64,000 nt of DNA from Myxococcota bacterium (GCA_965228475.1 OZ245817.1:2464001-2528000); one strand, 5' to 3'; shown: positions 28,996-42,169, counted from the first letter of the stretch. Notes: generated from the letters alone by a model not told the origin. Translations and numbers: made by a program.

Positions 28996-29072
28996 TGGTG
29001 GCGGAGGAGAGACTCGAACTCTCGACCTCGGCTTTATGAGAGCCGCGCTCTAACCGGCTGAGCTACTCCGCC
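28996..29072 (-). tRNA. tRNA with CAT anticodon, most likely elongator tRNA-Met
   Basis: GGCGGAGTAGCTCAGCCGGTTAGAGCGCGGCT-CTCATAA-AGCCGAGGTCGAGAGTTCGAGTCTCTCCTCCGCCACCA. Full cloverleaf, encoded CCA, paired G1-C72 (not initiator). Ile2 not excluded. Confidence 0.95.
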
Positions 29073-29118: not shown

Positions 29119-29820
29119 TTAGCGAAGGCGGGTCTCGGGGGAAGCGCCCTCTTCCGGGGCCGCCTCGGCCGTCTTTTCCTCGGCCTTCCCGCTGAAGAGG
29201 AAGTCCTCGATCGTCTCGAGCCGGCGGCGGAGATCCTCGAGGCCGGCCTCGTTGGCGGCTGCGCGGGGGGCCGCCGGAGCGGGCCCCGCTGCGACGGCCG
29301 GGAGCTCCGGCTCCGCCACGTGGGCCGAGCCGGCGACGAAGAGGCTGATCTTGCCGGCCGTGGCGTCGAGCTGCGGGATGATCTCGCCGACCGTGCCGGA
29401 CTGGATGAAGATGCGCCGCGCCCGGGGGTCGTCGTCGTTGCCGAAGGCGGCGGCGTCGAGACACTGCACGTCGAGGGAGGCGCCTTCCCCGAACTGGGTG
29501 AACGCCCCGAACACCGCGTACTGAGCGCCGTTCTCGATGGCCAGGGCAGCGGCCCGCTGGGGATCCGACGTCGCGAGGGCTTCATCCTCGATGCGAACGA
29601 CCGCCAGCTCTGGATTGCGCCCCAGGCGCGAGGCCAGCATGTCCGCGAGGCCCGAGCGGAGGTACGCCTGCTCACCCGAGGTGTTCACCACCATCGGAAG
29701 GATCGCGATCCGCGCGCGCGAACCGGCGGGGGCCGCGGCAGTGACGTCATCGGCACGCAGCTCCGCTCCACCGGCGAGCAAGGCGACTGCAAGAGCGAAC
29801 AAAAGACCCGTAGCGCGCAC
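29119..29820 (-). CDS. Exported protein, TolB-N/CsgG-like domain
   Basis: Signal peptide, RIAILPMVVN...GLADMLASRL...AVFGAFTQFGEGASLD pattern. Confidence 0.6.
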   Translation of the reverse strand: MRATGLLFALAVALLAGGAELRADDVTAAAPAGSRARIAILPMVVNTSGEQAYLRSGLADMLASRLGRNPELAVVRIEDEALATSDPQRAAALAIENGAQYAVFGAFTQFGEGASLDVQCLDAAAFGNDDDPRARRIFIQSGTVGEIIPQLDATAGKISLFVAGSAHVAEPELPAVAAGPAPAAPRAAANEAGLEDLRRRLETIEDFLFSGKAEEKTAEAAPEEGASPETRLR

Positions 29821-29898
29821 GCGATCTCCCAAAGAAGGTCTCCTGGCCGCAACGCGCAGCCAAGTGCGTGGTTTTACTACCAATCTCGATGGGCGGGG

Positions 29899-32892
29899 TC
29901 AAGCTGTCGCGCGGCTCCCCCAAAGAAACTCACGCGCGCGGCCCAGAAGCGGCTTCATCCCGAGAGCCTTCGCCTTCTCCTCCGACCGCAGCGCCATCTC
30001 GCGCGCCTTCCGCCCATCCCCGGGCCCGGCCCGCTTCCGAAGCAACTCCGCATACCCCAGCTCGATGTGCGCGACCCAGGGCGGCGCCTCCGCCGCCTCA
30101 GCCTGCGACAGCGCCTTCTCGAAGAGCTCCTCCGACCGCTCGTACTTGCCAGCCGTCATGGCCAAGCGCGCGAGGTAGTAGTTGACTGGGCGCCAGACGG
30201 CTACGGAGTAGACCACGACAAGGTACTGGTCTTCGTACGGGAACAACGCGTCGAACAACACCTCGGACCGACGCTTGTCGCCGAGAAGGACACATGGCTC
30301 GACGATCAGCGCGACACTGATCAACCACTCAGCTGTTTGCGGCAATCGAACAGCAGATGGCGAGACGATCTTCGCGAGGGCGGCCTTCGCCTCCTCCCGC
30401 CGGCCCGCGCCGGCGAGGAAATGGATTCGCGCGCACTCGTAGGCACGGAGTCGCGGATAGAGCAGCGCTTGGCGCTCGGCGATCGCGACCCCTTCGGCAA
30501 GGCTTCCGATCTCGATCTCTCGATAGAGTCTGTGAATCACAGCCGAGTTCTCGGCGTTCCGGTCGTTTAGCTCTCTCCCTCGCTCCTCAAAGCGTGCAGC
30601 ACACTCCTCCGCATCGCCCCACCTACCCTCTGTCATAGCCTGCATCGCAGAGAAGAGATCCCGATACCACAGCGCGCTTGGGTTGAGAGAAGCCGCGGCC
30701 TTCCTTGAGAACTCCGCGACCTCGACCTCCGCCGCCTCAAACTCTCCGACCTGAAGCAACCCGGTCAACCGATACAGGCGATACACGAGCTCCATCTCCC
30801 GGTCCTCGTTGTCGACAGCATGCGCGATCGCCCAACTCGCGAGCGCCGCCCTCTCAGACGCCCCACCTGGCCCCCAGCAGGCAACCTCCCTGGCCGTCGC
30901 AGCGAAGACTTGCGATTCCGGCGAGCCCGCCACTGCCGCCTTGTCCAACGCTTCTTGCGCAAGCCCCACACACTCGTCGTGTCGCACGGACCAATACAAT
31001 GCTATCGCCAGCTGACCGCAAACCTTGGCTTGAAGCTCTAGGGGAACCCGAGCGCCGAGTGAGCGGACTTCTTCAAGTGCCTCAATCAAGAATTCATCGA
31101 CTACGCCCGCCTCGATCGCGAAGAAGTCGGGCGCGTATCCGAGTGCCGCCCGGGCCAGCGTCTCTGGATCACCACACGCTCGTGCCAACTCCGCCGCGCG
31201 CTTGCAAGACCTCTCGGCCTCCCGGGGAAGGCCTGCTCGCCGCTGGGCCGTTCCTAGCCTTATCAGAAGATCCGCACGCAGCATCGGATCTGCCGGCCCC
31301 GCCCGATCTAGGAGATCGACGGACTCTTGCAGATACTCGACTGCCTCGGGGAACCCAAGATTCCTTGCCGACCACTCCGCAGCCTCTTCAAGCGTCTTCA
31401 GCCAGCCATCTGTGTCATCAAGCCTTCCCGCCGCGAGCCCATGCGGAGCCGCCAAACATGCGACCTCACCGACGAAGACACCATGTATGTCTCGCAGGGC
31501 TGAGACGACCCCCAGATGTGCACGAGAACGCTCCTCAGCAGAGAGAGAAGAGTACAGAACGTCCCTAAGAAGACCGTGCGCGAACACAAACTCGAGAGGC
31601 CCAACCTGACGGAGGATTGCCGCACCGACTCCCTCCTCGAGTTCCGGCAGAACCTCCGCGGGCTCTCGCCCTAGCAAGCGACTCAGGACCCCCACATTCG
31701 GCTCTTGCCCCACGACAGCCGCCGCCTGCAAGACATCTCGAGTCTCGGCTCTGAGGCGATCGAGTCGCGCTTCGAGCATCGCCTCGACGCCTGGAGCTAC
31801 CCAGCCCACCGGAACTGATCTCATCCCCGCCATCTTCATCTCATGGGCGAACTGCTCAAGAGCGAAAGGATTTCCTGCGGTTCGCGCCATCAGCTGGTCC
31901 ACCGTATCCTCGTCAAAGCCCTCGCAGCCAAGCCCACCCAAGAGGGAAATTCCCTCTCCTCTAGTCAGCCCGTGCAGGGCCACCGTGTTGACAGGGCTTA
32001 GCCTCTGGATCTTCGCCGCCAGCTGCGCCGGCATTCGCTCGAGCTCGTGCGATCGAAATGACGCGACCAGCCGAACACCAGCGGGACGCAGCTCCCTTGC
32101 CAGAGCTTCGAAGAGCACGATAGATGACGGATCACCGACCTGGAGGTCGTCGATCGCGACCAAGACAGGCGAATCCACTGCCAGATCCGACAGCGCCTGC
32201 CCAATGGACTCGAACGCATCAAAGAGAATCATGCTTGCGGAGCTCGCCGCTTTCGCCTGCCGGGACTGCATCGCAGAGAGCTCCGACTCCCAGCGATCAG
32301 CCAGGCCGAGTGATCGAAACACCTGCTGCCACGGGGTATACGGAGCGCCTCGGCGCGCCTCAGAACAGCGCCCCACCGCAACGCGACATCCCCTCCGTCT
32401 AGCCCGCAGCGCGAACTCTTCTATCAGTCGAGTCTTTCCTATTCCCGCCTCTCCCAGCACCAGCGCAACTCCGGTCATCCCAAGATCGAGATCGATCACG
32501 CTTGTCAACTGCGAGAGCTCAGTTCTCCTCCCTACAAACCCTTGAGACTCGGTTCGCAGCTCGATGTTCTGATGATCGCTGTCAGCTTCTCGGACATTAA
32601 CGAGCCACCGATACCCCTTCCCGTACACTGCCTGGATCGTTGTAGGATTGTCCGCCGAGTCGCCGAGGGCAGTCCTGAGTGAATTGATGGCAGTCGGAAT
32701 AGTCGAAGCAGCGATCGCCCGCCCTTGCCAGATCTCCTCTTGAAGCTCGGCTTTTCTGACTACTCGATCGCGATTGCGGATGAGATAAAGGAGCAAGTCA
32801 AAGACCAACTGCCCAATCTCTACGGGCTGGCCGCGACGAAGCAGAAGCCGCCTGCCTTCGTCCAACTCGAAGTCCGAGAACTGAAAATGCAT
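29899..32892 (-). CDS. Winged-helix (Trans_reg_C) + AAA/STAND ATPase + TPR transcriptional regulator
   Basis: FSDFELD...LLLYLIRNRDRVV...LRTALGD...IQAVYGKGYR, Walker A GEAGIGKT, Walker B IDDLQ, GNPF, FAHGLLRD, helical repeats. Confidence 0.9.
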   Translation of the reverse strand: MHFQFSDFELDEGRRLLLRRGQPVEIGQLVFDLLLYLIRNRDRVVRKAELQEEIWQGRAIAASTIPTAINSLRTALGDSADNPTTIQAVYGKGYRWLVNVREADSDHQNIELRTESQGFVGRRTELSQLTSVIDLDLGMTGVALVLGEAGIGKTRLIEEFALRARRRGCRVAVGRCSEARRGAPYTPWQQVFRSLGLADRWESELSAMQSRQAKAASSASMILFDAFESIGQALSDLAVDSPVLVAIDDLQVGDPSSIVLFEALARELRPAGVRLVASFRSHELERMPAQLAAKIQRLSPVNTVALHGLTRGEGISLLGGLGCEGFDEDTVDQLMARTAGNPFALEQFAHEMKMAGMRSVPVGWVAPGVEAMLEARLDRLRAETRDVLQAAAVVGQEPNVGVLSRLLGREPAEVLPELEEGVGAAILRQVGPLEFVFAHGLLRDVLYSSLSAEERSRAHLGVVSALRDIHGVFVGEVACLAAPHGLAAGRLDDTDGWLKTLEEAAEWSARNLGFPEAVEYLQESVDLLDRAGPADPMLRADLLIRLGTAQRRAGLPREAERSCKRAAELARACGDPETLARAALGYAPDFFAIEAGVVDEFLIEALEEVRSLGARVPLELQAKVCGQLAIALYWSVRHDECVGLAQEALDKAAVAGSPESQVFAATAREVACWGPGGASERAALASWAIAHAVDNEDREMELVYRLYRLTGLLQVGEFEAAEVEVAEFSRKAAASLNPSALWYRDLFSAMQAMTEGRWGDAEECAARFEERGRELNDRNAENSAVIHRLYREIEIGSLAEGVAIAERQALLYPRLRAYECARIHFLAGAGRREEAKAALAKIVSPSAVRLPQTAEWLISVALIVEPCVLLGDKRRSEVLFDALFPYEDQYLVVVYSVAVWRPVNYYLARLAMTAGKYERSEELFEKALSQAEAAEAPPWVAHIELGYAELLRKRAGPGDGRKAREMALRSEEKAKALGMKPLLGRAREFLWGSRATA

Positions 32893-32959
32893 CGGCGATC
32901 AGTCTAAGGCGAGGGGAGGCCGGTCTGCGCCGAACCGATGCAAAGAGCCGAAAAGCAAG

Positions 32960-33000
32960 GTAGAAACCCTCGCTAGATCATCAGAAAGCCTCAGAAGCCC
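32960..33000. repeat. Direct repeats (gtAGAAaccc, tcAGAAagcc, tcAGAAgccc) upstream of wHTH regulator
   Basis: Copies at 32960, 32981, 32991, about one or two helical turns apart. Confidence 0.45.
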
Positions 33001-33018
33001 CGCAAGGCGCAGGGCGCC

Positions 33019-34485
33019 TCACCCGATCGAAACCGAGACCCGAAGCTCCTCGCCCGCGGGGTTGAGTGGCCCGACACTCAGCGGTCCAAAGAAGCCGGCA
33101 CCGAGCTCGGAAGCGGCTGCCAGCTCAAGGGATTCCATGACCCTCGAGGCCACCAGGTCGGGCGCCACTCCAGGATCGAGGGGCACCACCAATGCAACCC
33201 GCCCACCCGCGATGGTGACCCCAATTGTGCCACCTCTCCTAGCGAGCCCGACACAGAGCACGAGGAGCAAAGCAAGGCAGAGAGTGAGACGAGACCTCGG
33301 CCCCGAGACTTTGCCCGACTCGACGTCCGTCGCGATTGAAACCCCGGCCCGGCCCACGGCCGCAGCGATCCCCTCAGCAGCCTCGGAAAGCAGCTCGCTC
33401 AAATCGCACAAAGTGCAAGCCTCGATTCGATCGCTGCGGACCTCAGCGATTAAGTCCTCCAAGACCCTCGCTGGACGGAACCCTGAAGCTAGCAATAGGG
33501 CCGGCGCCGCAAGGACCTTGAGCTGATCGACTTCGACCGACACCGATTCAGCCGGCTCCATCGAGCGAGCGTTCTCGATCGCAAGAGAAACCTGAGAGGC
33601 TAAGCCCTCCAAGAGTGCGCGTTCGGCTGCCCGAAAGGACCTCCCGCCCTTCCGATTGTCAACCACCAACACGCCGACCGCGCCTCTTGGCCCCACAAGC
33701 GGAACAGAAAGGATCTCTTCTGCGGCTAGCTCCACAGCCAGGGTTCTGCCGACCGGGCCGAGCTCCGTCGCGGTCTCTGCAACGACCAACTTCGTCTCTC
33801 CCGAGCGAACGGATTCGAGCCACGGCCCCCCATTTGCCTCGTCGATCGAAAGCTCACAGGCAAGACCGCCATCGGGGTCGGAGCTCTCTGAGCTAGCCAC
33901 CATCGTCAACCGGACTCCTGCCTTGTCGAGGATTCCGATCATCGCAGCATCGAACCCAAGATCTGAGGCCACAGCCCGGACCACAAGCTTTGTGAGGCGG
34001 TCAAGGTCGGATTCAGAGCCGATTTGGTGGCTAATCGATCGGACGGCTGTCAGTTCCCGGAGAAGCGAGTCCTTCTCAGACTCCAGGGCATAGAGGTCGA
34101 TGGCTTGCACCACCACCTGCCTCATCTGATCGGGCGACCAAGGCTTCGGGATGTACCGGTAGATCTTCCCGTGGTTGACTGCGTCCGCCAGGGTTTCTGC
34201 GTCACCGTATGCGGTGACCAAGAGGCGCACTGTCCTCGGGTCGACCTCCCGCACCCGAGAAAGAAAATCGGTTCCCGTCATCTCGGGCATTCGGTGGTCG
34301 CTGAGCACGACGGAAATAGGGTGTTGATTGATCAGGTCGAGCGCGTCAGCGCCGCTCTCAGCCGTATAAATCGTGAAATCTCGACGAAAGGCGAGTTCGA
34401 AGGCGCGCAGGTTCGCCCTCTCATCATCTACGTAGAGGACAGGGAACTCTCGTCGATCCACGAGGCGTTGCGGCTCAGGCTGCAT
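33019..34485 (-). CDS. Response regulator REC + GAF + degenerate HATPase-like tail
   Basis: LYVDDE, SDHRMP, TAY, KPW; GAF SVPL...GVLVVDN...LASQVSLAIENAR; tail lacks H, N and G boxes. Confidence 0.88.
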   Translation of the reverse strand: MQPEPQRLVDRREFPVLYVDDERANLRAFELAFRRDFTIYTAESGADALDLINQHPISVVLSDHRMPEMTGTDFLSRVREVDPRTVRLLVTAYGDAETLADAVNHGKIYRYIPKPWSPDQMRQVVVQAIDLYALESEKDSLLRELTAVRSISHQIGSESDLDRLTKLVVRAVASDLGFDAAMIGILDKAGVRLTMVASSESSDPDGGLACELSIDEANGGPWLESVRSGETKLVVAETATELGPVGRTLAVELAAEEILSVPLVGPRGAVGVLVVDNRKGGRSFRAAERALLEGLASQVSLAIENARSMEPAESVSVEVDQLKVLAAPALLLASGFRPARVLEDLIAEVRSDRIEACTLCDLSELLSEAAEGIAAAVGRAGVSIATDVESGKVSGPRSRLTLCLALLLVLCVGLARRGGTIGVTIAGGRVALVVPLDPGVAPDLVASRVMESLELAAASELGAGFFGPLSVGPLNPAGEELRVSVSIG

Positions 34486-37261
34486 CAATGTTCTCTTCTG
34501 GGAGCCAGATCTCGAAGCAGGCGCCGTCGCCTAGAACAGAAGACACTCCGATCGTCCCGCCGTGGCTCTCGATAACCTGCCTCGAGATCGAAAGGCCGAG
34601 CCCCGTGCCCTTCCCTGCACCTTTTGTCGAGAAGAACGGGTCGAACAGTCGCGCTATGTCGTCAGGCTCGATCCCGGGCCCATTGTCACGAATCGCCACT
34701 TGAACCCCGCTGGCGTGGGCCTCGATCGATACCGAGATCTTTCCACCCCCTCCTTCTTCGAGAGCCTCCGACGCGTTCTTTAGGATGTTCAGAAGGACCT
34801 GACCGATCGCCTGTGGGTCTCCCACCACAAGAGGAACGCCCTCTGCGCAGCTAACCGCGACAGAGACGTTCTTCTCTGCCATGGAGTGCCGCAAGAATCT
34901 CGAGACAGAATCAACAGACTGGACGACGCTGAAATGGACCTTCTCACCGAGGGCTGGCCTGGAGAAGTCTCGAAGATCTCCTACAAGCTTTCCCGTTCGC
35001 TCGAGGCCTTCTTCAACGATACCGGCGAGCTCTATCACCGCGCTGGACGTATCGCTCAACTCAGCCAGCCGCAACCGCTCGGAAATCTTGGCTTTCTCTT
35101 CACCTGACAGAGGCGGCCCGCTCTCTTGAACCAGCCCACAAACCTCACGAGCTGCCGATACGAGATCCTCGATGTAGGGCTTCATGGCACGGACCGCATT
35201 CACGGAGTAGTTCACAGGGTTGTTGACTTCGTGAGCGACACCAGCTGCGAGTTCGCCTACCGCTGCCAAGCGCTCCGATTGTACGAGCTGGGCCTCCGCC
35301 TCCTTCAGCTCATCCAGCGTCGTCTCAAGTTCGTCGTTCGCATGCTCTAGAGCGCGGTTCCGTTCCGCAAGCTCAGTCTGCAGCTGCCTGAGCCGTACCA
35401 AGCTCCGCACCCGGGCGAGCAGCTCCCGCGAGTGGAAGGGCTTCGTAACGTAGTCGTCAGCCCCCAACTCAAGGCCCTCAATCTTCATCTCGCGCTCTGC
35501 CTTGGACGTGACCAAGATCACCGGCAGAGCTTCAGTCGTCGAATCACATTTCAACGTCTCACAGAGCTCAGTCCCCGACATCTCCGGCATCATCACGTCC
35601 GTCAACACCAGATCTGGCATTCTGCGCCGCACTTCCTCGAGGCCCTCCCGTCCATTCTTCGCCGTCCGGACTGCGAACTCACTCGACAGGACGTGAACCA
35701 AGAGCCTACGCATATCCGGGTTGTCCTCGCAGACCAAGACGTCCGGCATGTCCGCTCCGCCCTGGCCAGCCTGCGCCCCCTCATCGTGCGCACTCCCTTT
35801 CGTACGCTCCCATCGGTCTACCGATCGCTCTAGATCCAGGAGCTTGCTCGCCTCCTCATGGTCCCGCGAGAGCTGAGCGTCCAAATCTGCGAAGCCTGAG
35901 ACCTGCGACCTTTCCCTGGGTGCATCCGCAAGGACATCTTCCCTCGCAACGTCCTCTTCTCCTTGTGGCAAGGTCACAGCCACGTTGGTCCCGAAGCCTA
36001 TACCCTTGCTAACCGCCCAGATCTTTCCACCGTGCAGCTCGACCAGCTCTTTCGAGAGCGCCAGGCCAATCCCCGTTCCTTCGTGCCGACGAGTTGACGA
36101 ACCATCGGCCTGGGCGAAGCGATCGAAGATCCTCTCGCAGTCACGAGGCTCAAGGCCGATGCCTGTATCCGACACTTCGAGCCTTATTCCATCACCATCA
36201 GCACGAGCGCAGACAGAGATCGACCCGCCCGAATCCGTGAACTTCAATGAGTTTCCAACTAGGTTGATCAACACCTTCTCGAGTGCATCCGGGTCCGCGT
36301 TGATCGAGAGAGACTCATCGAACTCGCCAACGCTGAGATTGACTCCCTTCTTGCGAGCCAGAGGCTGAGCTCCCGACACGATGTCTGCCGCAAGCTGAGC
36401 CGGCGATACCAATCGGCGCTCGATCCTAAGTTGATCACTCTCAATCTTCGCCAGATCGAGCAGGTTATTGATCAGCTTCAGTAGCCTGAGCGCATTGACG
36501 TGCATCGTGCGCAAGTAGTCGCGCTGGAGCGGGTTGACTTCGCCGAACTCACCCCCCAGAAGGCTCTCGAGCGGAGCGAGGGTCAACGTAAGGGGCGTGC
36601 GAAGCTCGTGGTGGACGTTCGCAGTGAATCTCGACTTCTGCTGGTCGAGCTCCCGCAGGGTGTCTCGCGCCTTCTCGACCTCTCGACGCCGAACGAAATC
36701 TCGAAAGCGGCTGTTGTCGATAAGCGCGGCACTAGCGATGCAGACGATTCCGGCCGAGAACAAGAACACCGAGCTCATCAAGAATTCACGCCAGGGGATC
36801 TCCCATGGCAAGACCAACGGAGAGCATGCATAGAGTCCGAACGTGCAGACGCTCAAGACTGCCGCTTCTCGTACTGAGAACGGCAACAGGACAGGAACGC
36901 CCGCAAGGAAGAGGATTAGCCCGACGTAGTAGCCGCCAGAGGGCTCGCCGGTACCGAAGATCACCATTCCCAGCATCGCTTCAGTCGACAGAGTCAACGC
37001 CCACTTCGAGACAGGCGCAGGAACCCCACTGGAGGGCGCGAAGAACAGCCCGATCAGTCCGACTTGGAGAGCGCATCGAACCAGGAAGAAGTCTGCGAAT
37101 TGCGCCGGGAAGAGGTAGAAGTCAGAGAAGACGAAGAGGACGTTGACGACAGCAGTCGTCACCACTCCGGTGCGAATGTAAGAGCTTCCACCATAGTGGT
37201 TGAGCTCTCGCCAGTACGCTTCGTAGGAAGCTCTGCCTGCCTCTTCTACCAAACCGGCCAT
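34475..37261 (-). CDS. Membrane hybrid sensor kinase: 6 TM-HisKA-HATPase-REC-HisKA-HATPase
   Basis: HHELRTPL, NLVGNSLKF, DTGIG, GTGIGL; REC EDN/TDVMMP/KPF; second kinase AHEVNNP, NILKNA, DNGPG, GTGLGL. Confidence 0.93.
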   Translation of the reverse strand: MAGLVEEAGRASYEAYWRELNHYGGSSYIRTGVVTTAVVNVLFVFSDFYLFPAQFADFFLVRCALQVGLIGLFFAPSSGVPAPVSKWALTLSTEAMLGMVIFGTGEPSGGYYVGLILFLAGVPVLLPFSVREAAVLSVCTFGLYACSPLVLPWEIPWREFLMSSVFLFSAGIVCIASAALIDNSRFRDFVRRREVEKARDTLRELDQQKSRFTANVHHELRTPLTLTLAPLESLLGGEFGEVNPLQRDYLRTMHVNALRLLKLINNLLDLAKIESDQLRIERRLVSPAQLAADIVSGAQPLARKKGVNLSVGEFDESLSINADPDALEKVLINLVGNSLKFTDSGGSISVCARADGDGIRLEVSDTGIGLEPRDCERIFDRFAQADGSSTRRHEGTGIGLALSKELVELHGGKIWAVSKGIGFGTNVAVTLPQGEEDVAREDVLADAPRERSQVSGFADLDAQLSRDHEEASKLLDLERSVDRWERTKGSAHDEGAQAGQGGADMPDVLVCEDNPDMRRLLVHVLSSEFAVRTAKNGREGLEEVRRRMPDLVLTDVMMPEMSGTELCETLKCDSTTEALPVILVTSKAEREMKIEGLELGADDYVTKPFHSRELLARVRSLVRLRQLQTELAERNRALEHANDELETTLDELKEAEAQLVQSERLAAVGELAAGVAHEVNNPVNYSVNAVRAMKPYIEDLVSAAREVCGLVQESGPPLSGEEKAKISERLRLAELSDTSSAVIELAGIVEEGLERTGKLVGDLRDFSRPALGEKVHFSVVQSVDSVSRFLRHSMAEKNVSVAVSCAEGVPLVVGDPQAIGQVLLNILKNASEALEEGGGGKISVSIEAHASGVQVAIRDNGPGIEPDDIARLFDPFFSTKGAGKGTGLGLSISRQVIESHGGTIGVSSVLGDGACFEIWLPEENIDAA

Positions 37262-37357
37262 TCAGACCAGAATCGGTAGAAAACACAGCTTTCTTGAGCT
37301 GCTATTGCTGATACCGCAGCGCGCGGTCGCAGCTCCCAGCTGACGCAGGGGACTTGG

Positions 37358-39856
37358 CTAACTGGGCCTTATCGCTGACAGAACGATCGCCTGCGGAGGG
37401 TCACCGAACCCACCGGATGTACGCACGGACGAGAAACCTGCCCGCCGAACCATCTCCTGCAGCTCGACTTCATCCCAAAAGTGGAACCGACCGGCCTCCT
37501 CGAGGTCAAGGATCCGAGCGGCGTCGTTGAGAAACCGACGCAGCGACTCATCAACCGCAGTCTCGCCAACACTCCCTAGCAACTCACTCGCTCGACCGGA
37601 CCTCAACTCCCGAACACCCTCGACAAACAGTCGAGAGATGTCCGCGTCCTTCCGGAGCGTCGAAAGGACCAGCCTCCCCGACGGACGAAGCATCCGATAC
37701 ATCAGCTTAATCTGAGCTTCGGGTTCTTCAACGTAGGAGAGAAATAGGGACGCGAGAAGGGCATCGTACCTGCCCTCGAAGCCACCTGCTGAAACCACCC
37801 CTGTATCGGCGAGGTCGCATTCGATGTAACGAAGAGAGACGCCATGAGGCGTGCCGACCTTTTCGATTCGAGTTCTTGCGTGCTTCAATGCCTCGGGAAC
37901 GAGATCTATCAGGTCAACCGTGATTCCCTGCGGAGCCCCAGACTCCAGCAGCCTAAGCGGGAATGCTCCTGTGCCAGCGCCGACATCCGCGACCCGATCC
38001 CCAGAGCCTAGGCCTAAGGCGAGAATCTGCGTATCCATGAGGCGCTGGTACGGCTCGATCGCATTCATCAAATCGATCCCGAGCCCCCCGTCCCGGCCGA
38101 GCAGGTAGTTGCGCCAGAAGTCCACGGCATTGATCGATGGTGCGCCGACCCGTGCTCGCTCTGCCTTCCTCTTCAGCTCCAATGCCGAAACATCGGGAAG
38201 GCCAGGAGCAAGCTCCATTTCCGTAGCCATCTTTCCGATCTCGACTGCGATCAACTGGAACACTTCGATCGCCTCTTGACTACTCCGCAGCTGATGGCCA
38301 GTGGGTACCTCAAGCAGTTTTCGCCTCGACGTATCGCCGAGCGCCATAATCTCGCGGACGCGGGTCAAGTCTAGCCACGCATCGAACTTACCGTGGATCC
38401 AGGTGATTGGAACGTCGATCTCAGCCATCTCTCGACGAGAGTCTTCCAGAAAGGCTAAGTCGTTCCCAATCGCGTCACTCGCGACCCTATCGATGTCTGT
38501 CGTTACGCCCATCAGTTCCTGAATTCCGAACTCCAGTCCCTGCTCGGCGCCACCGATGAAGTCCAGCCCACCCGAGACCTTCTTCAATCCTGACTGGAGG
38601 TCGGGAGCACCGACAACGCTAACCCAACCTTTGATGAGACCAGTCTGGTCTGCCACAACAGCCCTCCTAGCCTCGATCGATGCGGCGCTGAAGCTGACCA
38701 AAATGGCGGTTTGGGTGGCGAACTCAGGAGAGGTTGAGAAGTAATCAACCGTGGCCTGAATGTCCTTCACGCCCTCGGAAATCGAGAAGTGCAGATTCTC
38801 CATTCCTTCGGTCAGGCACTCGGGGTCATTGTGGGACTCACCTCTTTTCCGAACACCATCGAAACGAACGACCACCACAGGAACGTTTGCTTTCTCGAAG
38901 GTGGCCAGAATCGTCGCCGCCAAGGGGAGCAAAGTCTCCTTCGTCCGACCCCAAGCAGGGGGGATAACGACCAGCGTTGCCCCTCTTCTTTCCCCGACAC
39001 TGTCAACGATCGCCACGATCTCTTCGCCGCGGGAATTTGGGTACCTCACCACCTCGATACGTTCCGAGGTTCGTTTCGCTCGCCCGAGGGCTCCACGAAT
39101 CACAGCACTCGCGCCAGCAGCTGCAAGGCTCAGCTTCTGCCTGATCCGAGAGCCTGCTGGTAGTTGGAGAATCGAAGAACGGCGCTCCACTGGGTAGAGA
39201 TCTGTGGGTCGGACAGAACTAGTAGACAACCCAACCCGGCTCCACCCGGCCCGCGTGGGAGCCGCGGACTTTCGGCGCAGCTGTGCCCAGCGAAGCGCCT
39301 CTCCATGAATCTCCACTCGAAACGAGGACTCTAAGTCCTGCGCGCCTCTTGTCGGCAGCTCAACTTGAAGGCCGTCCGCCGAGAGATCAACAACCCGACC
39401 TCTAGCTAGAGTCGCGCCAGACTCTGAGTAGATCGATACCTCTCGCGCTCCCCCCTCATCAACTCGGCTGCGGCGCCGATCCCGGCGCTCCGCGCGGTAG
39501 ATCCTACTGGGCATGGGCGCGACCACGCGGTCCGCCACCCCACAATCAGAACTAGGCAAACAGACGAAGAAGTACGGGAGGCCGTCCAGAAAGAAATTGA
39601 GAAGCAACGAACTCTTCCGTGCCTTGTCAAAGTTCTTAGTGCTGAGCGATACGGAGTCGGACCCGACTGTCTCCAAATACGCGGTCTCGGGATCATCTGA
39701 GCGATGCCTAGCCCCAGAGAGGGGAATACGCTCGCGGCACACCCTGGCTAGAACCGCCTGGATCTCTTTGGAATCCTTGATTGCGCTGGCGTGAAGCTCA
39801 TCAATGACACCCGGAGCTATCGGCTGCCCTAGGCGGTACGTAGGAGAGGTCTGCAC
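37358..39856 (-). CDS. Fusion protein: YcgR-like N domain + PilZ + LuxD-like alpha/beta hydrolase + class I SAM methyltransferase
   Basis: ERRDRRR and DLSADG (PilZ); RFDG...GES, VSFSAAS, HGKFDAW, TGHQL (triad); VADVGAGTG, YDALL, LRPSGRL (MTase). Start GTG 39856 after AAGG. Confidence 0.85.
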   Translation of the reverse strand: MQTSPTYRLGQPIAPGVIDELHASAIKDSKEIQAVLARVCRERIPLSGARHRSDDPETAYLETVGSDSVSLSTKNFDKARKSSLLLNFFLDGLPYFFVCLPSSDCGVADRVVAPMPSRIYRAERRDRRRSRVDEGGAREVSIYSESGATLARGRVVDLSADGLQVELPTRGAQDLESSFRVEIHGEALRWAQLRRKSAAPTRAGWSRVGLSTSSVRPTDLYPVERRSSILQLPAGSRIRQKLSLAAAGASAVIRGALGRAKRTSERIEVVRYPNSRGEEIVAIVDSVGERRGATLVVIPPAWGRTKETLLPLAATILATFEKANVPVVVVRFDGVRKRGESHNDPECLTEGMENLHFSISEGVKDIQATVDYFSTSPEFATQTAILVSFSAASIEARRAVVADQTGLIKGWVSVVGAPDLQSGLKKVSGGLDFIGGAEQGLEFGIQELMGVTTDIDRVASDAIGNDLAFLEDSRREMAEIDVPITWIHGKFDAWLDLTRVREIMALGDTSRRKLLEVPTGHQLRSSQEAIEVFQLIAVEIGKMATEMELAPGLPDVSALELKRKAERARVGAPSINAVDFWRNYLLGRDGGLGIDLMNAIEPYQRLMDTQILALGLGSGDRVADVGAGTGAFPLRLLESGAPQGITVDLIDLVPEALKHARTRIEKVGTPHGVSLRYIECDLADTGVVSAGGFEGRYDALLASLFLSYVEEPEAQIKLMYRMLRPSGRLVLSTLRKDADISRLFVEGVRELRSGRASELLGSVGETAVDESLRRFLNDAARILDLEEAGRFHFWDEVELQEMVRRAGFSSVRTSGGFGDPPQAIVLSAIRPS

Positions 39857-39867
39857 GAGGGCCTTTC

Positions 39868-40056
39868 TCAGTTGAGACGGAGCCTGGAAGGGAACGCAAA
39901 TCCGGCCGTCCTCGACCGATTCCGCCGATCCATCCCGTTTCGCAGGGGCGTGTCGAGCGCTCGCAGGCGCGAGAGGATCTCGACGACCGCGGCGCGGTCT
40001 GCGATGGATTGTCGGTGGAGGGCGCCGAAGGTCGGCTGAGGATTCAGCTGGGTCAT
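39868..40056 (-). pseudogene. 62-aa truncated paralog of the N-terminus of the downstream fusion protein
   Basis: Good RBS (GAAGAAGGA). SIADRAAVVEILSRLRALDTPLRNG aligns by eye with AIKDSKEIQAVLARVCRERIPLSGA. Confidence 0.55.
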
Positions 40057-40173
40057 GCATCCTTCTTCCGTGAAGTCCGCGCGTAGCCAAGTGGTTGCGA
40101 AACCGCATTCTACTTACGGTAGAAGAAGGGATTCAAGCTGTAGTTGCGAGTTTGGGGTGATAACAACGCGGAC

Positions 40174-41181
40174 TCAGGGCCCGCGGCTGTCCACCTTCTC
40201 GAGCTTCACCCCGGCGTCCGAGAGGATCTCGAGGGAGCTTTCCCCCAGCGGGTAGTCGCCGTTGTAGATCACGGCCACGATGCCCGCGTTGATGATCATC
40301 TTGGTGCACTGCAGGCACGGAGACATCGTCGTGTAGATCGTGCCGCCGCGGACCGGGACCCCGTGGTACGCGGATTGGACGATGGCGTTCTCCTCGGCGT
40401 GGGAGCACAGGCAGGTATCGAGCCCCGCCCCGCTCTGCCCGAAGGCGTTGCAGCGCGGGCAGCCCCCTTCGTTGCAGTTGCGCACGCCGCGGGGGGTGCC
40501 GTTGTAGCCCGTGGCCACGAGCCGGCGATCGATCGTGATGACGGCCCCGACCTTGCGCTTCACGCAATTGCTTCGAGATGCAGCCACCTCGGCAATGTTC
40601 ATGAAGTACTCGTCCCAGTCAGGGCGCTCGAAAAAAAGCGAGCGGGAGAGGATGGTCTGGATCGCCTTGTGGAGTTCCTCCTTGCCGCCGTCGTTGCGCA
40701 GGGTGAAGTCCGCCAATGCCTGGACGGCCGCCATCTGCTGCCCGGCGGCGTTCTCGCCCCCGCGCTCCCGGCCTTCGAGCTCCTTCAGGCGCTCGAGGGT
40801 CTCCGGGTCACCCGGGCGGGCCCTGCCCTTCAGGCGCTCGAGCCGGGTCTCCATGTCTGCGTCGACCCACACGAGCTTGAAATCGCCGTGGGCCTCGCGA
40901 AGGGTCTCGACCTCCGCGGGGTGGCGAACGGAATCGACGACGTAGTTGCGGTCCGGCGCGAGCTTGTCGAGCAGGCGGACGGCCAACGCCCCCGGGCCGT
41001 AGCGCTCGCGCAGCTGGGTGCCGACCTCGATCATGCGCTCGCGCGATTCTTCGAGCCCGCGCTCGCGCAGCTCGTCGCGCAGGACGTCGGAAAGCGAGAG
41101 CGCATAGAAGCTCCGGCTTTCGAGGTACGCCATGACCTCGCCCTTGCCTGCACCGTAGGGCCCCGAAAGACCGAGAATCAT
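40174..41181 (-). CDS. P-loop NMP-kinase-like domain fused to dCMP deaminase
   Basis: GLSGPYGAGKG, DSVRHPAEV; then RPDWDEYFM, RSNC, TGYNGTP, HAEENA, PCLQC. Confidence 0.92.
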   Translation of the reverse strand: MILGLSGPYGAGKGEVMAYLESRSFYALSLSDVLRDELRERGLEESRERMIEVGTQLRERYGPGALAVRLLDKLAPDRNYVVDSVRHPAEVETLREAHGDFKLVWVDADMETRLERLKGRARPGDPETLERLKELEGRERGGENAAGQQMAAVQALADFTLRNDGGKEELHKAIQTILSRSLFFERPDWDEYFMNIAEVAASRSNCVKRKVGAVITIDRRLVATGYNGTPRGVRNCNEGGCPRCNAFGQSGAGLDTCLCSHAEENAIVQSAYHGVPVRGGTIYTTMSPCLQCTKMIINAGIVAVIYNGDYPLGESSLEILSDAGVKLEKVDSRGP

Positions 41182-41287
41182 GGTGTTCCCCCCTCCCCTC
41201 ACTTATCCCGGTGCGCTGCGGGGGTCAAGCGTTCCGGCTCCGGACCGGCCTCGGCGAGCTTGGCCGGCCCCAGGAGCGGAGACTCGC

Positions 41288-42028
41288 TCACTTCCGGCGG
41301 CTGGCGAGAAGCAGAAGGCCCGCGAAGCCCGTGGCCATGGCCAGCAGGCTGCCCGGCTCCGGTACCGGCAGGCTCACGTTCGTGAATGTGATCGTCGTGA
41401 AGATCGGGAACTGGTTGCCGAGGACTGAGACGAAGGTCGGCGAAACCAGCGTAAGCGGGCCCGAGGCGCCCGCTAACGTGACGATGTTCGTGCCCGAGTT
41501 CACCGCGCCGACTCCCGTGCTGAAGACGGCGGCGTCTATCGTGAAGGGCGAGGCCGTGGCACCCCCCTGACCGAGCTGAGCCGCGTTCAGATCGACCGGG
41601 ATCGGGACGATGACCGGAGTGAAGACGTTCACGAAGCCGTCGAGGCCCATGGCCCCACCGACACCGCCACCCGTGTTGCAGGCGATGCCCGGTGCGACGC
41701 CGCCACCGCACACTTCCCCTGGAGCATGGACCGTCACGCCACCGGCCGAGAACGTGCCAGCCTGGTTGCTGATGGTCATGGCGGCAATCGAGTTGATCGC
41801 CGTGGTGGAGGTTACGGGCACGACGACCGGAGCCGGCAGCGAAACGGTGCCAGCAGCAATCGACACGGTGCTACCGGACACCGAAACCGTTCCGACTTCC
41901 GAGAAGGAAATCGGGCTCAAGCCCTGAATCGTCAGCGTGAAGATGATGTTCGTCGCTACCGGCGCCGCCTGGACGACTCCGCTCACCAAGAGCGACCACG
42001 CGGCCACGATTCCGAAGAACCAACTCAC
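41288..42028 (-). CDS. PEP-CTERM sorting-domain surface protein
   Basis: RBS GGAGGAG then GTG, signal peptide ...VQA, Thr/Gly/Val-rich body, C-terminal VPEPGSLLAMATGFAGLLLLASRRK. Confidence 0.92.
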   Translation of the reverse strand: MSWFFGIVAAWSLLVSGVVQAAPVATNIIFTLTIQGLSPISFSEVGTVSVSGSTVSIAAGTVSLPAPVVVPVTSTTAINSIAAMTISNQAGTFSAGGVTVHAPGEVCGGGVAPGIACNTGGGVGGAMGLDGFVNVFTPVIVPIPVDLNAAQLGQGGATASPFTIDAAVFSTGVGAVNSGTNIVTLAGASGPLTLVSPTFVSVLGNQFPIFTTITFTNVSLPVPEPGSLLAMATGFAGLLLLASRRK

Positions 42029-42169
42029 GAAAGCTCCTCCCAGCCTGCGGCAACGCCGTCTCCGGACGCCGCGACGACTGACGGAGCCTTCCGCGCCGCG
42101 GCTCCCGAGGCCGCACCGGCCTCGAGTCACGACCCTAACACAGGACTCGGGCGGGCTCGGTACCGGCGC

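Follow-up and report, generated by a model that had tools for sequence, protein, structure and literature searches.

A candidate Phc-like lipid signalling cassette with a PilZ, LuxD-like and methyltransferase fusion enzyme in a Myxococcota bacterium

Introduction

The closest described counterpart of the locus considered here is the Phc system (phcBSRQ, PhcA). It belongs to the Ralstonia solanacearum complex, has homologues in Cupriavidus and in Paraburkholderia, and encodes a methyltransferase, a membrane sensor and a REC-kinase without a DNA-binding domain, in that order. PhcR is described as a REC-controlled kinase (PMC13269768), and in Ralstonia, too, the synthase and the sensor vary together according to the type of signal (PMC7694676). 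The same order is found in a 64,000-nucleotide stretch of a Myxococcota genome (GCA_965228475.1 OZ245817.1:2464001-2528000), referred to throughout as the window, where four co-oriented open reading frames (ORFs) lie on the minus strand at 37358-40108, 34475-37261, 33019-34488 and 29899-32892. This agrees with the initial annotation, which had read them as a synthase-like fusion, a sensor kinase, a REC protein and a regulator with a winged helix-turn-helix (wHTH), an ATPase and TPR repeats. Pfam recognizes a methyltransferase and a weak PilZ domain in the first, HisKA, HATPase and REC in the second, REC-GAF in the third, and Trans_reg_C-AAA_16-TPR in the fourth. The cassette is probably a Phc-like lipid autoinducer system whose synthase is non-orthologous to that of Phc and likely gated by cyclic di-GMP (c-di-GMP). 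In the literature searched, outside of which fell most subscription papers and supplements, no description was found of a PilZ-LuxD-like-methyltransferase enzyme or of Phc-like systems in Myxococcota.

The candidate synthase

The candidate signal synthase (37358..39856, minus strand) is a protein of about 832 aa. Its longest ORF reaches an ATG at 40108, however the start is probably the GTG at 39856, which has a ribosome-site-like word (GAAAGG) in front of it and gives the length seen in most homologues. Among 8,000 scored candidates 441 homologues were recognized, the 119 best non-self ones showing 43-58% identity. The AlphaFold model, built with 45 sequences (predicted local distance difference test, pLDDT, 85), contains two β-barrels, an α/β hydrolase and a Rossmann methyltransferase; all three parts of the proposed PilZ/hydrolase/methyltransferase fusion are thus present, and the hydrolase proves to be LuxD-like. 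Residues are numbered from position 39826, and invariance was checked over two alignments of 45 and 35 rows.

The N-terminal portion (39197..39814, minus strand) consists of tandem PilZ-type barrels (PilZN-PilZ) and is a predicted c-di-GMP input. The motifs RxxxR and D/NxSxxG define c-di-GMP binding in PilZ domains; both are invariant here, the first at ~39470-39484, with R115, R119 and G152 kept in 45/45 and 35/35 rows, and a PilZ barrel carrying the two motifs is what characterizes PilZ c-di-GMP receptors by sequence. The Pfam PilZ model matches 34 of the 45 family members, while the window synthase scores 16 bits, below the cut-off of 22.5, and a c-di-GMP-bound PilZ protein (3kyf) stands at rank 10 in the Foldseek search with the synthase model. 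On these motifs the PilZ pair likely binds c-di-GMP directly.

The central portion (38141..39067, minus strand) is a LuxD-like domain of the acyl-acyl carrier protein (acyl-ACP) thioesterase/acyltransferase kind, with a catalytic triad of Ser380 (38689), Asp482 (38383) and His511 (38296) that is invariant in every row of both alignments. LuxD (1tht) is the first Foldseek match to the model (E 1.5e-12, TM-score 0.80), and VIA-align superposes 275 residues of the hydrolase on it with a Z-score of 28.6 and a root-mean-square deviation of 2.6, the next hydrolase reaching Z 23.0; a LuxD-like fold with a Ser-Asp-His triad, as expected of LuxD-like thioesterases, is therefore in place. The aspartate and histidine of LuxD that we take to be the counterparts of Asp482 and His511 are putative assignments from the model. 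The LuxD family model PF02273 does not match the window synthase; 6 of the 45 members match at E<=1 (best 0.0046), and one distant synthase (L095) passes its cut-off with 23.6 against 20.3. In six distant synthases of ~30% identity the triad and the PilZ arginines are kept.

The C-terminal portion (37361..38134, minus strand) is a class I S-adenosylmethionine (SAM) methyltransferase domain, modelled alone with a pLDDT of 92, in which the DxGxG motif and the ribose-binding Asp are invariant (D614, G616, G618 and D641 in 45/45 and 35/35 rows). Against PhcB-like proteins the Rossmann core alone aligns (93%, 121 columns; 96.6%, 140 columns), the reference being a Paraburkholderia PhcB-like protein (468 aa, Arg22, encoded upstream of a PhcS orthologue) and not Ralstonia PhcB itself. 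Homology of the PilZ domains to the PhcB-like N-terminus was considered and set aside, the HHalign comparison not being significant; a PhcB-like protein from the window's class (L070) does pass the Pfam PilZ model. A PhcB-like gene has no match anywhere in the window genome. From its sequence, the cassette enzyme is assigned outside the PhcB family, and the proposal of a different, thioesterase-containing synthase stands, with a PhcB-like gene occupying the same slot at 7 sister loci.

Synthases of other Myxococcota classes (L096, L098-L102, L104-L108, L111) have one more PilZ domain at the N-terminus, and in many of them ~100 residues are inserted within the methyltransferase, as seen in the aligned rows and deduced from split matches for the rest.

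The sensor kinase and its relation to PhcS

The second gene (34475..37261, minus strand) encodes a hybrid sensor kinase of 928 aa with a MASE8 membrane domain followed by a histidine kinase core (HK1), a REC domain and a second kinase core (HK2). The phospho-sites His218 (HK1) and Asp555 (REC) are present in 56/56 sensors and His677 (HK2) in 55/56. The membrane domain (36707..37189, minus strand) is the variable, synthase-tracking part, and a hydropathy plot, the sole basis for the count, gives about six helices. The six-helix sensor kinase of the initial annotation is thus recovered in its membrane domain, with two kinase cores and a REC in place of a plain kinase; the membrane motifs that had been quoted are all located in it, as is the H-box AHEVNNPVN, which belongs to the second kinase core.

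The lead to PhcS was a weak plasmid match (E 8), serving as a lead only, to a Paraburkholderia operon of a methyltransferase, a kinase and two REC genes. The first 245 residues of the kinase of this operon share 55% identity with Ralstonia proteins named PhcS, among which the named R. pseudosolanacearum PhcS (P0273) carries Leu161, the site of the published L161R allele as given in the available part of PMC6989110. The methyltransferase has Arg22 and 468 aa, matching PhcB as described in the available portions of PMC6989110 and PMC7694676.

The resemblance to PhcS that had been suggested is borne out by profile comparison. HHalign pairs the alignment of 47 cassette membrane domains with that of the named PhcS family at 99.3% (E 3e-20, 199 columns); the cassette profile scores >=48 bits on all 120 PhcS-family proteins, with reversed controls at <=4.7, and the PhcS profile scores a median of 33.6 bits (lowest -0.6) on the 47 cassette domains. 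Among the 24,033 ORFs of the window genome the sole significant match to the PhcS profile is the cassette sensor, and among the genome's matches to the PhcS kinase HK2 ranks first or second. PhcS proteins carry Pfam MASE8. The PhcS-type membrane sensing domain of a Phc system is accordingly found in the cassette (by HHalign and by reciprocal profiles with reversed controls), whereas the PhcS architecture, a membrane domain and one kinase core in ~442 aa, is not that of this 928-aa protein. By these profile alignments, the sensor membrane domain is a true homologue of the PhcS membrane domain. CqsS, LqsS and RpfC do not appear among the PDB and NCBIfam matches of the membrane alignment, a search that leaves room for distant kinship as no direct comparison was made.

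Two proteins (L079:9628-10812 and L080:8689-9891) join the same membrane domain to GGDEF and stand alone, no synthase having been noticed nearby; from their domain make-up they are possibly eavesdropping receptors that make c-di-GMP. At L095:1442-5571 three more ORFs with this membrane domain lie directly downstream of the main sensor, as a receptor array.

Conservation of the synthase-sensor pair

Synteny of the two genes is strong. At the level of the window's class the sensor lies directly downstream of the synthase in 46 of 64 loci and nearby in 2 (48/64 in total), and of the 16 loci without a sensor, 15 end within 2.7 kb. Of 225 class genomes, 83 have the synthase and 101 the sensor, the latter with strong matches in 96; 78 of the 83 have both. 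A 401-genome sample of the phylum gave 24 synthase matches outside the class; in the 20 of these loci that were retrieved the sensor is directly downstream in 18, nearby in 1 and absent in 1, and a GGDEF and/or EAL gene adjoins the sensor in 12 of these 20. The neighbourhood check proposed at the outset thus favours the pair, and a lipid signal synthase and its receptor is the probable reading of it.

A gene for an MMPL exporter is present at 36/64 loci. At its variable end the cassette has genes for acyl tailoring (cyclopropane synthase, desaturase, P450, radical SAM) and others of LolA-like or MMPL type. In 8/64 loci P450, desaturase, cyclopropane synthase, radical SAM or diiron genes immediately precede the synthase, these being candidates picked by eye. 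The MMPL protein of the window genome most similar to the cassette exporter is encoded 1.5 Mb away (G000:C1:968710-970890; L065:8645-10951) at 44% identity, the next reaching 29%. This distant gene adjoins a molybdopterin-oxidoreductase-like ORF, identified by eye.

Two loci (L014, L038) bear spirochaete titles (Spirochaetaceae/Spirochaetales); their genomes (G175, G039) are placed in the window's order or family, and the titles therefore do not count as evidence of transfer to spirochaetes. In G035 the usual address behind the dCMP-deaminase gene holds a PilZ pair in frame with a DNA polymerase A fragment (L082:8338-9960), the hydrolase-methyltransferase half and an MMPL-sensor-relay set lying elsewhere on the chromosome, through either rearrangement or misassembly.

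Exchange with PhcB-like genes

The synthase slot can be filled by another enzyme. Eighteen class genomes have a strong sensor match and no synthase; 20 regions were taken, 13 of them from such genomes, and at 7 loci (L067-L071, L076, L078) a PhcB-like methyltransferase lies upstream of the same sensor type, with 29-33% identity to the Paraburkholderia protein (E 1e-18 to 1e-36). Six of the seven come from synthase-less genomes; the remaining one is an additional cassette, its genome having the LuxD type too. An MMPL gene stands between the PhcB-like gene and the sensor in 6/7, a desaturase or cyclopropane synthase adjoins in 7/7, and the downstream relay and flank of L076 are the same as in the window. 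In the other synthase-less genomes six loci end at contig borders upstream, and five regions with sensors near contig starts were left out; in G020 the sensor is shorter and the PhcB-like genes are found on separate contigs. A PhcB-like gene occurs in 0/64 synthase loci, and class genomes with one have the sensor in 11 of 12 cases.

The membrane domain follows the synthase type and the kinase does not. In membrane-domain trees the 7 PhcB-linked sensors cluster together, with support of 96 by the Shimodaira-Hasegawa-like approximate likelihood-ratio test (SH-aLRT) in a 59-row quick tree, which omits L083 because it duplicates L014, and of 89 with FastTree. For the HK1 domains of these sensors four changes are required, and a single HK1 group is rejected (p-AU 0.00096; approximately unbiased test on 24 of 56 rows). 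Some sensor pairs are 86-97% identical in HK1 and REC and 30-47% in the membrane domain, while other pairs reach 79-97% in the membrane domain as well. With the kinase held fixed, membrane-domain identity tracks synthase identity with a partial rho of 0.39 over 35 loci whose kin are not independent, a value as high being reached in 0 of 500 permutations; identity correlations with flanking genes are weak throughout and uninformative. Third-position GC (GC3) of the membrane domain is below that of the REC of the same gene in 32/38 loci.

Four of the sister loci (L067-L069 and L071, from G163, G166, G173 and G147) carry a short PhcB-like methyltransferase (~330 aa) without an N-terminal barrel, followed by MMPL and the sensor, and also a divergent fatty-acid desaturase and a STAND regulator; on its sequence the short enzyme counts as a third kind of synthase paired with this family of receptors. 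The long PhcB-like genes (L070:10461-12853, L076:7776-10135, L078:8681-11110) adjoin a cyclopropane-fatty-acid-synthase (CMAS) gene, and such a gene likewise lies near the Paraburkholderia plasmid operon (L066:4415-7876); this proximity suggests cyclopropyl or branched signals. The operon in question (L066, NZ_CP024936.1:432595-436970), of phcB-phcS-REC-phcQ-like order, lies on a conjugative Paraburkholderia graminis plasmid and gave the sole full-length PhcB-like match among 72,556 plasmid records.

The relay gene and the accessory regulator

The third gene (33019..34488, minus strand), whose start overlaps the stop of the sensor gene, encodes a REC-GAF-pseudokinase. In nine aligned relatives it is an intact REC-GAF-HisKA-HATPase protein of ~555 aa; in the window the H-box and ATP boxes are lost in the same frame. 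A frameshift was rejected as the cause, as the loss is in frame and public contigs agree. Its REC is the best genome match to the PhcQ-like protein of the Paraburkholderia phc-like operon, and a relay gene is present at 28/64 loci. The REC protein without a DNA-binding domain that had been proposed is therefore correct as to the REC, and the rest of the protein is a GAF domain and a decayed kinase. At L088:2641-4002 (G070) the dCMP-deaminase gene is immediately followed by a REC-GAF relay, and neither synthase nor sensor is there, an apparent clean loss of the variable part.

The fourth gene (29899..32892, minus strand) encodes a wHTH-STAND ATPase-TPR regulator with at least 9 paralogues in the genome. 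Core membership was considered and is not supported: the gene occurs at 21/64 loci, and the cassette-linked copies are not one clade (FastTree, long branches). It does lie downstream as first described, and is accessory.

Proposed mechanism and points against it

In the mechanism we propose, c-di-GMP would bind the PilZ pair and turn the enzyme on or off, the LuxD-like domain would cleave acyl-ACP, and the fused methyltransferase would methylate the freed acid, most likely giving a neutral, diffusible fatty-acid methyl ester. The chances that the product is a methyl ester are about even. An MMPL/RND protein, encoded elsewhere in the window genome, would export it, and the PhcS-type membrane domain, whose homology is established, may bind it in the membrane and set HK1 activity. 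Phosphate could then pass from His218 to Asp555, which would control HK2, and also to the relay protein's REC domain, in the manner of LvrA/LvrB; in the window genome the third protein, its kinase lost, may act as a phosphate sink or scaffold, with output via HK2. Synthase, exporter, tailoring enzymes and membrane domain would be exchanged together as a specificity cassette before a conserved kinase. The idea of an autoinducer synthase-receptor-relay module is upheld by the synteny and the PhcS homology, the methyl-ester chemistry and the signalling role remaining predictions.

A bolder form of this proposal, which we hold only tentatively, is that the enzyme is a convergent second fatty-acid-methyl-ester synthase, c-di-GMP-gated and interchangeable with PhcB ahead of receptors of the PhcS type, with a loop closed through the second messenger. 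Synthase, tailoring enzymes and receptor domain would change together as lipid pherotypes within this large uncultured lineage. Autoinduction would then run from the sensor through GGDEF/EAL proteins to the PilZ pair on the synthase, instead of through transcription.

Several observations weigh against the proposed system. Pfam MASE8 is matched in just 11/47 cassette membrane domains, and the window's own has no Pfam match; MASE8-type domains are also widespread (2,553 clusters at E<=0.001) and some are found on GGDEF proteins, and therefore homology to PhcS does not fix the ligand. A GGDEF/EAL neighbour occurs in 0/64 class-level loci, the window's included. The window cassette lacks an exporter, and its third gene is decayed. 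The PhcB-linked membrane clade has a support of only 26 in a 24-row tree, and four of its seven rows are close relatives; more generally, kin are not independent, so that co-occurrence counts overstate. Finally, the structural matches of the methyltransferase tie within ~1.5 Z across a carboxy-SAM synthase (CmoA, 20.7), an archaeal methyltransferase (20.5), a carboxyl-O- (BelI, 20.0), a C- (NovO, 19.6) and an S-methyltransferase (DsyB, 19.4), and because they tie across types the fold does not fix the methyl acceptor atom.

Alternative explanations

This tie bears on the alternative that survives best, namely that the circuit is the same and its chemistry different: the enzyme might transfer the acyl group to another acceptor, or methylate a hydroxyl, C, N or S, and the signal would be an acyl amide or ester, a methoxy acid or another lipid. 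LuxD is both an acyltransferase and a thioesterase, working through an acyl-serine intermediate at Ser114 (PMC6279958), and the tied matches span O-, C-, S- and N-methyltransferases. CysG, a homologue of BelI, makes a carboxyl methyl ester, according to the available part of PMC10776993, and the HHD motif described for CysG/BelI in the available part of PMC11408123 is not among the invariant columns. The enzyme nevertheless stands in for a PhcB-like methyl-ester synthase before the same sensor family, neighbourhood clustering shows no recurring acceptor-supplying gene, and for two such domains the reaction of a free acid with SAM is the simplest; we consider a different chemistry unlikely.

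An improbable reading, as we judge it, does away with cell-to-cell signalling, the enzyme making an envelope or storage lipid under c-di-GMP control while the kinase monitors the lipid or membrane state of the same cell. The MMPL genes of 36/64 loci would suit it, as would the LolA-like and DUF1302 genes of a few, and MASE8-type domains are promiscuous. A housekeeping lipid, however, would not need an allele-matched swap of enzyme and membrane domain, and neither the patchy presence (83/225 genomes) nor the interchange with PhcB-like genes fits such a role.

That the cassette is decaying and non-working in the window genome, though working in relatives, is quite improbable. The lost kinase of the third gene, the non-adjacent exporter and the low GC3 of all four genes point that way, and a same-genus genome (G040, 89% complete) has no match to synthase or sensor, its dCMP-deaminase gene lying ~400 bases from a contig end, too close for the site to be assessed. 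In the synthase and sensor, however, every catalytic, ligand-binding and phospho-site residue is intact, the ORFs are uninterrupted, a 99% identical strain keeps the cassette, and the MMPL orthologue (44%) is encoded elsewhere. A signal editor or quencher, in which the hydrolase removes and the methyltransferase restores the methyl ester of a foreign Phc-type signal and c-di-GMP picks the direction, is very improbable: methyltransferase/methylesterase pairs such as BioC/BioH and CysG/CysE exist (available part of PMC10776993) and several esterases follow LuxD in the fold ranking, but LuxD stands 5.6 Z above them, the window genome has no PhcB-like gene, and the enzyme's gene replaces PhcB-like genes in the cassette instead of accompanying them.

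Genomic setting and composition

The block at 29899-40110 has a GC content of 60.4% against 70.5% genome-wide, in agreement with the single lower-GC block first noted; of 500 10-kb genome segments, just 1 has a GC of <=61%. GC3 is 0.64-0.69 in all four cassette genes and 0.83-0.90 in two flanking genes. One public contig matches 28900-41300 in a single piece with 0 differences, being possibly the source of this DNA, and contigs of a second study cover most of the cassette at ~99% identity.

Upstream, an AAA/dCMP-deaminase gene (40174..41202, minus strand; 28/64 loci) marks a conserved chromosomal address, and downstream lies a conserved gene of unknown family (29119..29883, minus strand; 24/64 loci), both outside the system; a tRNA-Met (28996-29072) is next after the latter. 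A recent horizontal island was rejected as the main reading of the block, the same flanking genes recurring at 28 and 24 of 64 loci; it is also weakened by the synthase GC3, which is below that of the dCMP-deaminase flank in 26/28 loci. A conserved gene stands between the tRNA-Met and the block. Because of the recurring flanks and this GC3 difference, low GC characterizes the cassette lineage-wide, and the block is a variable unit whose chromosomal address is conserved, not a one-off island. Farther upstream, beyond the dCMP-deaminase gene, is a PEP-CTERM surface protein gene (41288-42130, minus strand), ordinary for the lineage.

Significance

If the proposed system is real, quorum sensing by fatty-acid esters would reach beyond a few Burkholderiales into a lineage that is abundant and uncultured, the enzyme would define a new family of autoinducer synthases, and MASE8 domains would gain a ligand class. 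A second messenger would here act directly on a signal synthase as its switch, for which no precedent was found in the literature searched, general reviews not having been opened. A one-protein route from acyl-ACP to methyl ester would be of interest to biofuel engineering. Natural allele pairs with near-identical kinases and divergent sensing domains are ready specificity controls, and the core claim is testable with a single gene.

Comparison with known systems

The cassette would work like Phc and falls outside it. The sensor membrane domain is homologous to that of PhcS; the synthase, however, is a PilZ pair with a LuxD-like hydrolase and a different methyltransferase and is not PhcB, the sensor carries an extra HK-REC module, the relay has a GAF domain, an MMPL exporter is frequent, and there is no separate phcQ. 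LuxD, a myristoyl-ACP thioesterase/acyltransferase (PDB 1THT, PF02273), is the best fold for the hydrolase by a wide margin, sharing a nucleophile Ser between strand and helix and an invariant Asp and His, whereas the cassette domain is 15-17% identical, is fused between PilZ and methyltransferase, and serves in a sensor-kinase context and not in luminescence.

The HK-REC-HK and REC-HK cytoplasmic layout is that of LvrA/LvrB of Leptospira, as set out in the available part of PMC5863495, and LvrA is the best NCBIfam match of the sensor, with 311.7 bits on NF047465 against a cut-off of 1200. LvrA takes its input through a cytoplasmic PAS domain and lacks a membrane domain, unlike the cassette sensor with its membrane input, and that same portion of the source mentions no synthase. 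The two barrels with RxxxR and D/NxSxxG, and the structural match to 3kyf, resemble YcgR-type PilZN-PilZ receptors, which bind the motor, while the cassette pair is fused to a lipid-processing enzyme. In the pherotype cassettes agrBDC and comQXP a variable low-GC synthase and sensor input domain are swapped before a conserved kinase at a fixed locus. The swapping seen here is alike, with no homology between the systems, the signals being peptides in Firmicutes and a predicted lipid in this lineage.

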